DNA of 64,000 nucleotides, taken from the NCBI GenBank assembly GCA_001793095.1, contig MGHG01000005.1, forward strand, positions 6,569-70,568, given 5' to 3'. The stretch is from Candidatus Woesebacteria bacterium RIFCSPLOWO2_01_FULL_39_23 (GTDB lineage Bacteria; Patescibacteriota; Microgenomatia; UBA8517). Shown here piece after piece: positions 6,441-56,066 of this stretch. Position numbers and translations under genes: made by a program. The notes under the pieces are model-generated. The model was not told the origin of the DNA, did not search any database, and saw only the letters and a list, made by a program, of their open reading frames with translations. The number at the start of each line of letters is the position of its first letter. Within the stretch, counting starts at the first letter, position 1.

Positions 6441-6743
6441 CTATTCAATCTTTGGTATTTTCACTATTGCTTTTGTTCCCGGACCTGCAGGTTTACCCTT
6501 ATTCGTAAAAGTGTTGTCCAGTTCAACTATAATATATAGATCATCCGGGCTCTGTTCTGCTTTCAATTTACCCGCTACCCGCTCTGCAGTATCTTCAGCA
6601 TTAGAGATTATTCTGCCGTCTTTAGTTACACCTCGCCTGTAATTACCAATAAATACCGTTCCCACTGGTAGGTCATAAAACTCCCGAAGTCTTTTAAAAA
6701 TTAGGTCACTCTCTTGTTCGAGTTTCGACTTCTCGGGCGTCAT
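6441..6743 (-). CDS. hypothetical protein
   Basis: 100-aa ORF, non-repetitive composition. Confidence 0.35.
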   Translation of the reverse strand: MTPEKSKLEQESDLIFKRLREFYDLPVGTVFIGNYRRGVTKDGRIISNAEDTAERVAGKLKAEQSPDDLYIIVELDNTFTNKGKPAGPGTKAIVKIPKIE

Positions 6744-6798
6744 AGAAAGATATTATAACACGATGTTTCGAAGCTAAAGGGAAGAAAAAAGTTTTAAT

Positions 6799-6999
6799 TT
6801 ACTTCTTGTTTAACTTTGTGGGTTCTATTTTCACTGAGGTCTCTATTATAACAACTTCACTTTTCCCAACTTCCGAAGGTAGGCGTTGAACTATTCTTTC
6901 TTTACTACTTATAATTCCGATCCTGTGAAGATGATATTTCTCCACAAGTCTTACTTCCCCTCCCCTTCCTGCAATCTTTCTTATTAAATTCATCACCAT
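6799..6999 (-). CDS. hypothetical small protein (KOW-like?)
   Basis: 66-aa ORF just upstream of the tRNA cluster on the same strand. Confidence 0.3.
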   Translation of the reverse strand: MVMNLIRKIAGRGGEVRLVEKYHLHRIGIISSKERIVQRLPSEVGKSEVVIIETSVKIEPTKLNKK

Positions 7000-7131
7000 G
7001 AGTGCCAGCGATTGGGATCGACCTACTAATCTTAGCTTTCGGCTTCAGGAACTATTCGTTCACGCCTCTAGCTGCGATTTCAGAAGGGTCAGCCTTTGGC
7101 TGAAACCCTTCACGATTATAAATTTGTCTTG

Positions 7132-7204
7132 TGTCAGCGGGTGGATTCGAACCACCGGCCGCTGCGTTATGAATGCAGTGCTCTAACCACTGAGCTACGC
7201 TGAC
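7132..7204 (-). tRNA. tRNA with CAU anticodon (Met, or Ile2 if lysidinylated); CCA not encoded
   Basis: Minus-strand read GTCAGCG TA GCTC AGTGGTTA GAGC A CTGCA TTCATAA CGCAG CGGCC GGTGG TTCGAAT CCACC CGCTGAC A. The cloverleaf is canonical with a 7-bp acceptor and TTCGAAT T-loop; 31:39 is an A-C mismatch. Confidence 0.8.
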
Positions 7205-7205
7205 A

Positions 7206-7291
7206 AACTTGAACTCTGAATGATGCGCTCCCCGCCTGCAGTACACTATGCGTAAGCATTACGGGCAAGTACCACTGAGCTATACTGGCGC
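7206..7291 (-). other. tRNA-like 5' fragment (acceptor strand + D-arm only) fused directly upstream of tRNA(CAU)
   Basis: Minus strand reads GCGCCAG TA TAGCTCAGTGGTA followed by about 60 nt that cannot be folded into anticodon and T arms. No matching 3' acceptor strand found. Confidence 0.4.
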
Positions 7292-7308
7292 GTCGAGTTT
7301 ATATTTTA

Positions 7309-7992
7309 CTACAATCGTGTTTGCAATCTCAAACCTTCGATATAACCTTGAATTTTCCTTAAAAAATCTTTACTTTTAAGAACTTTAACTCGTAATAAAC
7401 CATAATATTCATCGGGATGATCGTATATTTTTTTCCACTTCACATTCTGAAAATAGGGTTTTCTAAAATTATTAAGTGGAATATTTGTTAAGTCAGACCA
7501 ATGTCTTTCAATCTCTCTGATCCTAGATCGATGACTGTCATTAAGGGTTACACGTACAGTAAGATCGTTATAGTTATAATTAAAACATTTACTTAACCAT
7601 ATCAAAAACAAATTAATCATTGTTGGATCTGAATTAGCAAATCCAGCCTGACTATCTTTTTTAAAACCCTCGCTCCAATAGAGAGCTATTCCCACCAAAA
7701 ACAGCTCCCTTTTAGACAATAAGCCAACTTCGTTAATCCCCTTTCGTTTTAACTCCTCAACTTTCTTATTAGTTTGTAATTTTATATGATTTATATAATC
7801 TAAACGTTTACCATATAGAGGATCTCTTGCATGACTTTCTAAAACTTTGTATTGCTCTTGGGTTAGAATAATATCCCTTGTCCAAAGACTAACAGAACTT
7901 GTTGATACATTTAATTTTTTTGCTATATATTTAATGCTTAACCCTTTTTTTCTTAAATTTATAGCTTCAATTTTTTTCTGAGATTTTGCCAT
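7309..7992 (-). CDS. HTH-domain protein with LAGLIDADG-like motif (homing-endonuclease-like), paralog 1
   Basis: 227 aa; N-terminal HTH (LRKKGLSIKYIAKKLNVSTSSVSLWTRDI). Central LVGIALYWSEG resembles a single LAGLIDADG motif, followed by the conserved GFANSDP box. Paralogous to 55051..55770. Confidence 0.5.
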   Translation of the reverse strand: MAKSQKKIEAINLRKKGLSIKYIAKKLNVSTSSVSLWTRDIILTQEQYKVLESHARDPLYGKRLDYINHIKLQTNKKVEELKRKGINEVGLLSKRELFLVGIALYWSEGFKKDSQAGFANSDPTMINLFLIWLSKCFNYNYNDLTVRVTLNDSHRSRIREIERHWSDLTNIPLNNFRKPYFQNVKWKKIYDHPDEYYGLLRVKVLKSKDFLRKIQGYIEGLRLQTRL

Positions 7993-8032
7993 GTATACGA
8001 GTATTATTGTACCATACGGTCAAGTATTATTC

Positions 8033-8061
8033 TTGATTATTTTTTATACAGCAGCTATAAT
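8033..8061 (+). promoter_or_regulatory. sigma70-like promoter for tmRNA
   Basis: TTGATT (8033-8038), a 17-nt spacer, then TATAAT (8056-8061), about 28 nt upstream of the mature tmRNA 5' end; consistent with an RNase P-processed leader. Confidence 0.5.
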
Positions 8062-8089
8062 CATAACGTTCATTAATATATCAATACAT

Positions 8090-8424
8090 GCGGGGTAGTG
8101 TACGGCTGCACGGAAGGCTCGAAGTAATTGGGCCCTCAGATAAGAAATTATTATGAGTGAATTTGGTCACGGTACCATGTAGTACGTGATCGTGCGCTAA
8201 ATAGTGCGCGACTATATCGGTGAAACCTAAGTGGTAAGTATAAGCGGAATCATAAGGTAACGCCGAGGAAAGATCCTGAATAAAATTGAAGGAAATCCGT
8301 AGAGACTATACGCCAAATACCTAAACTATATTTAGAATGGTAAAGACATAGTCCGATACTCCGGGAAACCGGAGAAATTTTTAAGCATAATCTTCCAGGC
8401 TGGGTTCGACTCCCAGCCCCGCAA
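8090..8424 (+). ncRNA. ssrA: tmRNA (SsrA)
   Basis: 5' UGCGGGGU pairs with 3' ...GCCCCGCA across about 335 nt. The 3' end is a tRNA-like T-arm, CTGGG TTCGACT CCCAG, plus acceptor strand, discriminator A, and no encoded CCA. The 5' region GGCUCGAAG resembles the conserved tmRNA GGAUUCGACG box. No D-arm is present. Tag reading frame not resolved. Confidence 0.6.
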
Positions 8425-8429
8425 CACAT

Positions 8430-8475
8430 TCGACTCGCTTCGCTCGCTCAGTGCGAGCCGAGGAGAATGTGTGCT
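8430..8475 (+). terminator. hairpin cluster downstream of tmRNA
   Basis: CACATTC...GAATGTGTG long-range inverted repeat enclosing the GCTCGC TCAGT GCGAGC hairpin. Confidence 0.35.
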
Positions 8476-8559
8476 GAGCCCGTCGGAGCTCGACTTATTC
8501 GCTCCATTTCAATTACTATTGAAATGTCCACTTAACCAAGTCGGCTCCTCCTCTCAAAA

Positions 8560-8853
8560 TTGCATAGCAATTTTGAATTAACTGCTATACTACTCCCAAT
8601 GAAATCCGAATACGATCTTTACGGTGCCAGAAGGAAGGAAGATGAAGAGAAGTGGTTAAAATTAGTTAACTACTATCTTGACTCACTGGAATCCGGAAGA
8701 AAGATAAAACTAAAAGATGCTGCTGAAGCATCCGGTTATACTCCTAATTCAGCCTCTAACCAACTAAAAAAGATCAGAAGAGAAATAAATAAAAATAAAC
8801 TCGTTCTTACAAGAGATGGTAAGTTCATCGAACCGTCAGAAAAAATAACTTAA
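8560..8853 (+). CDS. hypothetical protein
   Basis: 97-aa ORF downstream of ssrA; charged C-terminus (KKIRREINKNK). Confidence 0.35.
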   Translation: MHSNFELTAILLPMKSEYDLYGARRKEDEEKWLKLVNYYLDSLESGRKIKLKDAAEASGYTPNSASNQLKKIRREINKNKLVLTRDGKFIEPSEKIT

Positions 8854-55050: not shown

Positions 55051-55770
55051 ATGTTCGTATATTACAGTTATTATATGGGTTACTTTGGTAAATTAGATGA
55101 AAGAATCAAAGTACAAGAACTTCGTAGGAAGGGGTATTCTTACAATGAGATACTTCAATATGTAACAGTTTCTAAAGATACTCTGAGCAGATGGTGCAGT
55201 AATATTCCCCTATCTGTCGAACAACAAAACCGTTTATTAAAAAACAAATCTTTAGGACAACGTAAGGGATCGCTAATAGCTGCAGAGAAAAAAAGGGAAG
55301 AAAGGATATTTAGAACAAATGCAATTATGAATAAAGCCAAAAAGGAAGTGGGGAAACTGAACAAAAGAGAAAGATTTATAGCTGGTTTAGCTTACTATTC
55401 AGCAGAAGGCGATAAATCTGAGAGCAAAAGTGGTTTTGCCAATTCTGACCCTAAAGTAATATGTTTCATGATTAATTGGTTCAAGGAGTTCTGTAATATC
55501 CCTGAGTCAAAATTTCGTGGAGCTTTGTGGTTACATGAAGGTTTAAATGACTATCAAGCGAGAAGGTTCTGGTCAAAAATCACAGGAATACCACTAGAAC
55601 AATTTTATAAGACTTACATTGCAAAAAACAAACAAGACAGTAAAAAGGTCAGAAAAAATCTACATCTATATGGGGTATTTTCTATAAGGTTTTGCGATGT
55701 AAACATACAAAGGAAAATATTAGGATGGATTTCAGGTTTATTTGATGCTAAAATCGGTACTGCTCTTTAA
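55051..55770 (+). CDS. HTH-domain protein with LAGLIDADG-like motif (homing-endonuclease-like), paralog 2
   Basis: 239 aa; N-terminal HTH LRRKGYSYNEILQYVTVSKDTLSRWCSNI; IAGLAYYSAEGDKSE LAGLIDADG-like box; GFANSDP box shared with 7309..7992. Ends 3 nt before the intron-containing tRNA. Confidence 0.5.
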   Translation: MFVYYSYYMGYFGKLDERIKVQELRRKGYSYNEILQYVTVSKDTLSRWCSNIPLSVEQQNRLLKNKSLGQRKGSLIAAEKKREERIFRTNAIMNKAKKEVGKLNKRERFIAGLAYYSAEGDKSESKSGFANSDPKVICFMINWFKEFCNIPESKFRGALWLHEGLNDYQARRFWSKITGIPLEQFYKTYIAKNKQDSKKVRKNLHLYGVFSIRFCDVNIQRKILGWISGLFDAKIGTAL

Positions 55771-55773
55771 TAT

Positions 55774-56066
55774 TCCCCGGTAGCTCAGCGGTAGAGCGGA
55801 TTCCTGTGATTTCTTAGCAGCTCTTAAGGGAAACTTTAAGATGAAAACTGGGAGAATTGCGTGAAGCCCCTATCTTCGGATGAGGTAACCCGCAGCCGAT
55901 CCTTTGTTAAAGTGGAAAGCACTGCTTTAGCTTAGGCAGGTTCAGAAACTATGCACCCAGACTCTAATCCAAATCGGCATGAGTAAGATATAGTTCCGCG
56001 TCCCATGGAAACATGGGGGTACGAGTAAGAATAAGGTCGTAGGTTCGAATCCTACCCGGGGAGCCA
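55774..56066 (+). tRNA. tRNA-Asn(GUU) interrupted by a 218-nt group I intron between positions 35 and 36 (intron 55808..56025); CCA encoded
   Basis: Exon 1 is TCCCCGG TA GCTC AGCGGTA GAGC G GATTC CUGU. Exon 2 is UAA GAATA AGGTC GTAGG TTCGAAT CCTAC CCGGGGA G CCA. The acceptor is a perfect 7 bp. The intron has group I core elements: P-like GGGAAACTTTAAGATG, Q-like AATTGCGTGAAG, R-like GTTCAGAAACTATG and S-like AAGATATAGTTCC. An IGS GCAG can pair with exon CUGU, and the intron ends in G. Confidence 0.8.
55808..56025 (+). mobile_element. group I self-splicing intron (tRNA anticodon-loop type, no internal ORF)
   Basis: Conserved P/Q/R/S core sequences are listed above. The 218-nt length is in the range of Azoarcus/Anabaena tRNA introns. 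The ORFs listed on the opposite strand inside it are spurious. Confidence 0.75.

Follow-up and report, generated by a model that had tools for sequence, protein, structure and literature searches.

The window analysed here, a stretch of 64,000 nt from Candidatus Woesebacteria bacterium RIFCSPLOWO2_01_FULL_39_23 (contig MGHG01000005.1), contains two related genes, each of which lies immediately beside a tRNA gene. This arrangement raises the question of what ties a protein with a predicted DNA-binding domain to a tRNA gene, and why it does so twice. The two open reading frames (ORFs) are ORF A, at 7309..7992 on the minus strand, and ORF B, at 55051..55770 on the plus strand. The two genes were compared with about 180 loci from related genomes and metagenome contigs, which are designated by L-numbers (e.g. 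L096). These comparisons lead us to propose that ORF A and ORF B are probably free-standing homing-endonuclease-like genes that collaborate in trans with ORF-less group I introns that interrupt tRNA genes.

Two paralogs and their intron-containing tRNA neighbours

ORF A encodes a protein of 227 residues in which an N-terminal helix-turn-helix (HTH; residues ~2-37) is followed by a long helical linker and a single LAGLIDADG-like domain (~94-224). The C-terminal domain contains the motifs GIALYWSEG (E108-G109) and GFANSDP. ORF B, listed with 239 residues, has the same domain order and the motifs GLAYYSAEG and GFANSDP; its true start is most likely at 55075 (MGYFGKL..., 231 residues), which matches the start of its homologs. 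The two proteins are 31% identical over 229 residues (BLASTP, E 5e-25), and the boxes G-I/L-A-x-Y-x-x-E-G-x-K and GFANSDP show no or next to no variation among 27 aligned members from both families. The initial annotation had regarded the two as paralogs on the basis of their shared HTH and boxes, and this relationship is clear from the alignments. A tblastn search of the window found no third paralog. The N-terminal HTH of both proteins matched Pfam HTH_23/HTH_38. Scans with NCBIfam, PHROGs and PADLOC returned HTH matches only, plus a weak match to phrog_8 'transcriptional regulator', and no defence-system match was found for either protein in the scans run, PADLOC among them. In the source annotations the family members are called only 'hypothetical', 'transcriptional regulator' or 'transposase-like'.

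Both genes have a neighbouring tRNA gene that is interrupted by a group I intron. An initiator-like tRNA(CAU) was identified at 8089..8425 on the plus strand by ARAGORN -i and by a match to Rfam RF00028 of 51.6 bits; it is composed of exon 1 (8089-8119, ending ...GGCU), an intron (8120-8385, ending in G) and exon 2 (8386-8425). This gene is divergent from ORF A, and a spacer of 97 nt separates the ORF A start from the tRNA 5' end. The corresponding neighbour of ORF B is a tRNA-Asn(GUU) at 55774..56066 on the plus strand (ARAGORN -i; RF00028, 56.7 bits), with exon 1 at 55774-55807, the intron at 55808-56025 and exon 2, in which CCA is encoded, at 56026-56066. It begins 3 nt past the ORF B stop codon (55768-55770). 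The Rfam group I intron matches themselves extend over 8110-8375 (+) and 55798-56018 (+), both above the gathering score of 50 bits. Intron boundaries were set by the group I rule that the 5' exon ends in U, that the intron ends in G and that a 7-nt anticodon loop is restored. By this rule the insertion is at position 33/34 in tRNA(CAU) (GGCU-intron-CAUAA) and at 35/36 in tRNA-Asn (CUGU-intron-UAAGA), and the spliced products regain 7-nt anticodon loops with CAU and GUU. The introns are 266 nt and 218 nt long, respectively, and both are without an ORF.

A weak or mismatched 1:72 pair is typical of bacterial initiator tRNA. The pair is U1-A72 in the tRNA(CAU) of the window and C1xA72 or A1xA72 in its relatives, some of which have CCA after A73. 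A promoter-like sequence, TTGATT-17-TATAAT, lies in the divergent spacer at 8033..8061 (+), 28 nt upstream of the tRNA(CAU) 5' end; it is a consensus match only. Strings resembling 'CACTTCGGCAAGCTCAGTGCAGGC' were found just past tRNA 3' ends in the window (8428-8500), L041, L054 and L010, and also at unrelated loci. The window contains four tRNA genes in all, two of which are reported by ARAGORN with default settings. Both intron-containing genes are missed by the default search and are mislabelled as tRNA-Ser(CGA) and tRNA-Thr(AGT) by the intron search, because the intron boundary is misplaced; the same annotation problem has been described for intron-containing tRNA genes (PMC13011429).

The tRNA adjacency described in the initial annotation was correct, in that ORF B lies 3 nt before the intron-containing tRNA-Asn, and a 5' tRNA fragment and a tRNA-Met(CAU) lie past the end of ORF A. 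However, the fragment and tRNA-Met had been taken as the partner of ORF A, whereas the neighbour that proved to be constant is the divergent intron-containing tRNA(CAU) at 8089-8425, which had been overlooked. The adjacency of ORF A to the downstream tRNA-Met depends on local gene order.

Group I introns at tRNA-Asn 35/36 and tRNA-Met(CAU) 33/34 have been reported in Patescibacteria by Nakagawa et al. 2026 (PMC13011429), and the introns at 35/36 of tRNA-Asn and tRNA-Asp that were tested self-splice in vitro. These authors concluded that most Patescibacteria tRNA introns are without an endonuclease gene and hence have limited horizontal mobility. Their endonuclease search covered only the interior of introns longer than 500 bp. 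No mention of a neighbouring HTH-LAGLIDADG-like gene was found in that study or in the other literature that we found.

Linkage to the intron and states of the tRNA site

Protein searches gave 197 matches for the family of ORF A (family A) and 223 for that of ORF B (family B), which were 50-83% identical and nearly all 225-231 residues long, with 225-228 residues in family A. In the searches made, both families were confined to Patescibacteria/Microgenomates. Fifty genome loci were found with a family-A profile, and their tRNA genes were identified with ARAGORN -i and the intron-containing tRNA with an nhmmer profile. Of 40 family-A loci, 38-40 have an intron-containing tRNA(CAU) on the opposite strand, separated from the ORF start by a median of 91 nt, and in many of them a plain tRNA-Met lies 19-25 nt past the ORF stop. 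The intervening sequence of tRNA(CAU) is ~200-270 nt long except at the Daviesbacteria-type locus L037 (936-1389), where it is ~450 nt and the nhmmer match is split in two. For family B, tRNA-Asn was found 3-33 nt downstream in all eight distinct loci and contained an intron in seven; the tRNA-Asn of L010/L011 is without one. The initial annotation had suggested that the placement of these genes beside tRNA genes is not random, and the same placement in dozens of related genomes agrees with this suggestion. As the window contains just four tRNA genes and two paralogs, chance placement is very unlikely. The adjacency recurs in nearly every related locus examined.

The site was also surveyed through the tRNA. 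Metagenome contigs were scanned with the tRNA(CAU) 5' exon up to U33, a query that matches both alleles and is independent of the ORF. This tRNA-anchored sample comprised 119 loci, 80 of them intron-less and 39 intron-containing. Every ORF of at least 50 residues was scored against the family profile, and counts were taken from loci that extend 1 kb or more on the tRNA 5' side. The ORF was present at 15 and absent from 14 of the 29 intron-containing loci, whereas it was present at 1 and absent from 47 of the 48 intron-less loci (Fisher's exact p = 2.8e-7). The result was similar for loci with room on both sides of the tRNA, where ORF-positive and ORF-negative loci numbered 9 and 9 with the intron and 0 and 32 without it (p = 2e-5). 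Three of the ORF-positive loci (L088, L154 and L174) contained split, frameshifted or truncated copies. No resistance signature was found in the tRNA, exon variants near the insertion site being alike in intron-containing and intron-less alleles.

A single syntenic site, Xer-DivIC-(tRNA-fMet)-tRNA-Met-TrpRS, in which Xer, DivIC, TrpRS and the tRNA genes were all mapped, was found in every state. It is empty in L085, where the intron-less tRNA(CAU) allele reads ...GGCT/CATAATCT..., and in L151. Only the intron is present in L125, L173 and L114; here DivIC ends 32 nt from the tRNA, and there is therefore no room for the ORF. In L096 and L107 the intron is accompanied by the ORF as a clean ~700-bp insertion, and L088, L154 and L174 contain the decayed, frameshifted or truncated ORF. 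The empty, intron-only, intron-plus-ORF and decayed-ORF alleles of a homing cycle, with the ORF linked to the intron, are thus all represented at one chromosomal position. The inserted unit is the ORF alone, without a recombinase, repeats or other cargo. In genomes with divergent tRNA genes (L121, L135, L170 and the window) the ORF lies between the two, and this is why tRNA-Met follows ORF A in the window. The ORF is 3' of the intron-containing tRNA in a third arrangement (L149, L091 and L119), and the side on which it is found differs by lineage.

Closely related hosts differ at this site. Xer is 98% identical between L114 (intron only) and L096/L170 (intron and ORF), and 92% identical between L089 (intron only) and L085 (empty). 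The Xer-DivIC segments of L096 (1-2895) and L170 (5549-8443) are 99.93% identical over 2,895 bp and diverge completely from the module boundary. Beyond it the two ORFs are 38.9% identical, the intron-containing tRNA genes are ~70% identical, and the module is inverted. The alignment indicates that this breakpoint is a boundary of genetic exchange at the putative nuclease gene. In comparisons to the window alone, the identity of homologs to ORF A tracked that of Xer, which gave an impression of vertical co-divergence of ORF and host. This was rejected, as the all-against-all correlation of ORF and Xer identity was weak (Spearman 0.25) and hosts with identical Xer carry 39%-identical ORFs.

Downstream of ORF A the window contains the remains of an older tRNA-Met gene, all on the minus strand. 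A 5' tRNA fragment consisting of the acceptor strand and D arm (GCGCCAGTATAGCTCAGTGGTA) lies at 7270..7291 and is orthologous to the intact tRNA-Met that is found 19-25 nt after ORF A homologs in other genomes. A degenerate T arm and acceptor 3' strand (...GGTCGATCCCAATCGCTGGCA) at 7003..7030 form the 3' remnant of the same disrupted gene. Nested between them is an intact, elongator-type tRNA-Met(CAU) at 7131..7204. The disrupted gene in the window also contains a 39-nt D-loop insertion with a hairpin. The outer architecture of window positions 7003-7291 recurs in L015 (2181-2560), the D-loop insertion included; its hairpin shows compensatory changes between L015 and the window, and L015 has an extra half tRNA-Met in addition. 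In L014 (2178-2400) a tRNA starts directly after the ORF and then diverges. A permissive search of 6700-8600 identified no Rfam family for the region around the 5' fragment, and its motifs TGCCCGYAAT and TGCAGRCGGGGAGC recur in L015 only. The nested remnants look like the product of repeated insertion or gene conversion, in which DNA bearing a new tRNA-Met copy entered the resident gene, perhaps as a by-product of break repair at a hot spot.

A second promoter-like sequence, TTGAGA-18-TAAAAT at 7303..7332 (-), overlaps the last codons and the stop codon of ORF A; it is likewise a consensus match only, and transcription from it would run into the downstream tRNA-Met region. In families A and B alike, the ORF stop codon coincides with a TAAAAT/TATAAT box (L001, L018, L024, L035, L181, L183 and L184), and in family A the -35 sequence TTGAGA/TTGCAA lies inside conserved codons of the C terminus (GLRLQ). 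The downstream tRNA thus appears to have its promoter embedded in the 3' end of the ORF. As promoter-like boxes overlap the ORF end in both families, the ORF seems to be woven into tRNA expression.

Small GIY-YIG genes (YhbQ-like, ~80 residues) were found sporadically beside the same tRNA-fMet/tRNA-Met cluster at ~17 distinct loci, whether or not the tRNA contains an intron; none is present in the window. These loci include L001 (2377-2628), three at which the gene lies directly after the ORF (L042, L044 and L061), and L078, L100, L141 and L164. They may represent a second selfish nuclease family at a tRNA-fMet/tRNA-Met hot spot.

The C-terminal domain and distant relatives

The initial annotation had assigned an HTH and a LAGLIDADG-like domain to both proteins. 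The HTH was recovered by Pfam, and the C-terminal assignment is upheld by a profile match to I-DmoI, although not by any Pfam LAGLIDADG model. Curated models (Pfam and NCBIfam) matched only the HTH in the two families, and the Pfam LAGLIDADG models had no match to ORF A, ORF B or the 27 aligned members even at E values up to 10. A phmmer search of PDB sequences with ORF A alone gave nothing useful. Foldseek against the PDB gave no significant match; OmpA-like and IspF folds appeared at E >= 0.06 and were not relied upon.

When all PDB sequences were searched with the family profile, the best match was I-DmoI (E 0.015). The profile segment 'GIALYaaEGdK' aligns to the second LAGLIDADG motif of I-DmoI, 'KGLYVAEGDK', and places E108 of ORF A on the catalytic E117. 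Across both families G101, Y105 and G109 are invariant, K111 is invariant or nearly so, and residue 108 is E in 26 of the 27 sequences and D in the remaining one. I-DmoI was also the best fold match to the predicted structures, including the packing of two domains. In these predictions the core has the order alpha-beta-beta-alpha-beta-beta-alpha, and two such domains pack through their LAGLIDADG helices; the modelled topology of the ORF A and ORF B domain contains an extra helix between strands 3 and 4. LAGLIDADG enzymes are built either as single-domain forms that dimerise or as fused forms, and as homing endonucleases they make site-specific double-strand cuts in targets of 14-40 bp, leaving 4-nt 3' overhangs. 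Both architectures occur among the relatives of ORF A and ORF B, and in tandem fusions the sequence 'YWCEGAK' is kept in both halves. As the profile match to I-DmoI, the predicted fold and the single and fused forms converge, we treat the C-terminal domain as a divergent LAGLIDADG domain in which the catalytic acidic residue is kept.

The proteins nevertheless differ from known members of this class. In contrast to I-DmoI, I-CreI, I-Tsp061I and the rRNA-intron enzymes of the candidate phyla radiation, ORF A and ORF B match no Pfam LAGLIDADG model and have an atypical motif (G-x-A-L-Y-x-x-E-G-x-K), an added N-terminal HTH, a long helical linker and the modelled extra helix. They are also free-standing, in contrast to LAGLIDADG enzymes encoded in introns or inteins. 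WhiA, a conserved housekeeping gene product, has two degenerate LAGLIDADG domains without catalytic residues and a C-terminal HTH; ORF A and ORF B have one domain, the acidic residue is kept, the HTH is N-terminal and their distribution is sporadic.

When 1.8 billion cluster representatives were scanned in full with HMMER, the superfamily comprised 1,026 clusters at E <= 1e-30 and 4,229 at E <= 1e-10 (clusters at 50% identity). Ten distant relatives (L050-L059; 30-38% identity), from Paceibacterota, Saccharibacteria and others, each have an intron-less tRNA-Gln(UUG) within 4-25 nt downstream, which sometimes overlaps the ORF. The same partner was found in cultured Actinobacteria. Actinomadura parmotrematis encodes a 532-residue tandem fusion (L185, 2501-4251) and Spirillospora sp. 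a 309-residue single form (L186, 2501-3560) at a shared site, ADP-ribosylglycohydrolase - ORF - tRNA-Gln(UUG) - glmU - prs; here the tRNA-Gln has no intron and lies 59-81 nt past the ORF. From these data we conclude that the rule for the superfamily is an ORF immediately 5' of a particular tRNA gene, to which the tRNA-fMet and tRNA-Asn branches have added the intron. Modification of the amino acid after charging was considered as a possible link between tRNA-fMet, tRNA-Asn and tRNA-Gln, and was set aside.

Proposed homing of tRNA introns and rival explanations

Several features argue for a homing life cycle, namely an optional ~700-bp gene, a nuclease-type fold, a catalytic residue and a location within ~100 bp of an essential tRNA gene. 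The behaviour of the gene in related genomes points in the same direction, as the ORF occurs almost only with the intron, is absent from half of the intron alleles, is occasionally frameshifted and has been replaced by a distant paralog in near-identical hosts. The initial annotation had offered three candidates, a tRNA-targeting homing endonuclease, an intron maturase and a domesticated tRNA-processing factor. The first of these best fits the comparative data on account of the intron linkage, the presence/absence polymorphism, the pseudogenes and the lack of co-divergence with the host. The other two are weakened by the intron-only alleles, by self-splicing of homologous introns, by the relatives beside intron-less tRNAs and by the sporadic distribution of the gene.

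We infer a cycle in which the ORF A or ORF B protein, presumably as a homodimer, would recognise the intron-less allele of its tRNA gene and cut it at or near the intron insertion site. Repair of the break from a donor with both intron and ORF would always copy the intron. The ORF, ~100-130 bp from the cut, would often be copied as well, but only when the conversion tract is long enough; such variable tracts would account for the many clean intron-only alleles. In a carrier the intron would split the recognition site and so protect the essential tRNA gene. After fixation the ORF would be free to decay or be lost, which would again leave intron-only alleles.

Collaborative homing, which pairs an ORF-less intron with a free-standing endonuclease directed at the site of intron insertion, is established in phages (PMC3984707, PMC6083498, PMC2790892). 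F-CphI with the psbA intron of cyanophage S-PM2 (PMC6083498) and T4 MobE with the nrdB intron (PMC2790892) likewise consist of an endonuclease gene beside a gene with an ORF-less self-splicing intron, and both ORF A and ORF B lie outside but close to a gene with an ORF-less, presumably self-splicing intron. By analogy with F-CphI and MobE, the expected target here would be the insertion site of intron-less alleles, and the intron would confer immunity; as in the phage systems, populations are mixtures of intron only, intron with ORF, and neither. The differences are that the phage systems act on protein-coding targets with Endo VII-like or HNH enzymes, whereas the present one is in Patescibacteria chromosomes, involves tRNA genes and an HTH-LAGLIDADG-like protein, and is widespread over deep lineages. 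Intron-encoded I-Ssp6803I (PD-(D/E)XK, cyanobacterial tRNA-fMet 33/34) and the HNH enzymes of some Patescibacteria tRNA-Asn 35/36 introns are found at the same host genes and sites (PMC13011429). Their presumed role, the spread of the intron into intron-less tRNA genes, would be shared by ORF A and ORF B, but they belong to other nuclease families and lie inside the intron, while neither ORF A nor ORF B is located within a tRNA gene. T4 SegB (PMC13096335, PMC2988022), like other free-standing endonucleases of phage tRNA gene clusters that practise intronless homing, is similar in being a free-standing endonuclease gene in a tRNA region that presumably targets the tRNA genes of relatives lacking a SegB-type gene, and this likeness bears on the members beside intron-less tRNA-Gln and tRNA-Asn. 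However, SegB is a phage GIY-YIG enzyme, whereas the ORF A and ORF B proteins are chromosomal and LAGLIDADG-like, with each subfamily tied to one tRNA species and most to an intron.

LAGLIDADG maturases are an established class, known in organelles. The protein could accordingly be a trans-acting maturase that binds the intron RNA of the neighbouring tRNA and aids its folding and splicing, perhaps as a bifunctional protein like I-AniI; it would then have been kept because the tRNA is essential. The presence of the intron at 15 of the 16 ORF-bearing tRNA(CAU) loci agrees with such a role, as does an intact gene conserved over deep lineages. However, 14 of the 29 intron-containing tRNA(CAU) loci have no ORF in the available flanks, some having no room for one, homologous introns self-splice in vitro without protein (PMC13011429), and relatives are found beside intron-less tRNA-fMet, tRNA-Asn and tRNA-Gln. 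In addition, the gene is outside the intron, strict co-occurrence of the two was not found, and the catalytic acidic residue and a DNA-type N-terminal HTH are conserved. We therefore judge a maturase to be rather improbable. A former endonuclease domesticated as a WhiA-like DNA-binding regulator, which would control transcription of the adjacent tRNA without cutting, is an improbable explanation as well, although the intact and conserved copies, the relatives beside intron-less tRNAs and the promoter-like boxes inside the ORF end keep both it and the maturase alive. The regulator is hard to reconcile with the sporadic distribution: among tRNA(CAU) loci of close relatives, 47 of the 48 without an intron and 14 of the 29 with one lack the ORF. 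Hosts with identical Xer carry 39%-identical ORFs, frameshifted copies exist, both halves of the tandem fusions keep the acidic residue, unlike WhiA, and there is no obvious reason for a regulator of tRNA-fMet to track an intron.

The gene might instead be another tRNA-linked mobile or accessory gene, e.g. an HTH protein of a small element, whose fold likeness is convergent and whose intron linkage arises indirectly through a shared hot spot. The lack of a Pfam LAGLIDADG match and of a significant Foldseek match is compatible with this explanation, as are the 'transposase-like' and 'transcriptional regulator' annotations of members, and the GIY-YIG genes and nested tRNA fragments at the same loci show that these are general hot spots. 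We consider it highly improbable, as the sequence profile and the predicted structure both lead to I-DmoI, down to the catalytic motif and the packing of two domains, the inserted unit lacks a recombinase, repeats and cargo, and the ORF is linked to the intron with high specificity (p = 3e-7).

Returning to trans homing by ORF A and ORF B, several observations weigh against it. Members are found beside intron-less tRNA genes, i.e. tRNA-fMet in L153, tRNA-Asn in L010/L011 and tRNA-Gln in all members linked to it, and at these loci no intron is available for self-protection. At the syntenic site, many intact ORFs have stayed well conserved across deep lineages, which counts against homing because decay after fixation would be expected of a gene that is purely selfish. 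The identities of ORF and intron are correlated over 1275 pairs (Spearman 0.50), but not in the 20-locus subset with Xer (0.02). The contrast between L096 and L170, which are metagenomic contigs, could in principle be an assembly chimera or stem from recombination that involved a larger segment. No relatives were found when viral contigs were scanned with the alignments of both families, and a phage origin is therefore unsupported. The relatives beside intron-less tRNAs may practise intronless homing with resistant target variants, by analogy with the phage Seg/Mob enzymes, or may have acquired a host function instead.

A broader and more tentative interpretation, which we regard as possible but unlikely, is that the ORF and the adjacent tRNA gene form a self-contained 'tRNA allele drive' across phyla, in which a tRNA-gene-specific endonuclease would move together with a copy of its essential target that resists cleavage. 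Resistance would be provided by the group I intron in tRNA-fMet and tRNA-Asn, and by sequence changes in the tRNA-Gln of Paceibacterota, Saccharibacteria and Actinomadura. The cassette would overwrite the resident tRNA gene of the recipient, which would have left the nested tRNA-Met fragments (window 7003-7291, also in L015 and L014) as its traces. An allele drive of this kind would explain the persistence and spread of tRNA introns without a homing endonuclease gene ('HEG-less') in the reduced genomes of Patescibacteria.

To our knowledge, collaborative homing has so far been described only in phages. The pairing of a free-standing endonuclease with an ORF-less intron is thus of a known kind; what is new here is its setting in Patescibacteria chromosomes, the tRNA genes as targets, the divergent HTH-LAGLIDADG family, the scale, and the intron-less tRNA-Gln loci in a second phylum. 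The missing partner of the tRNA introns may be this large unannotated family, whose members border the tRNA gene on its outside and show a statistical association with the intron. The members beside tRNA-Gln in culturable Actinomadura make the question experimentally accessible. If the interpretation is correct, the family would be a compact new LAGLIDADG branch with a built-in HTH and long, highly conserved natural targets, and hence of interest for engineering. If the proteins do cut intron-less tRNA alleles, collaborative homing would be known for the first time from cellular chromosomes and from tRNA genes, and the view of Patescibacteria tRNA introns as immobile would be revised.

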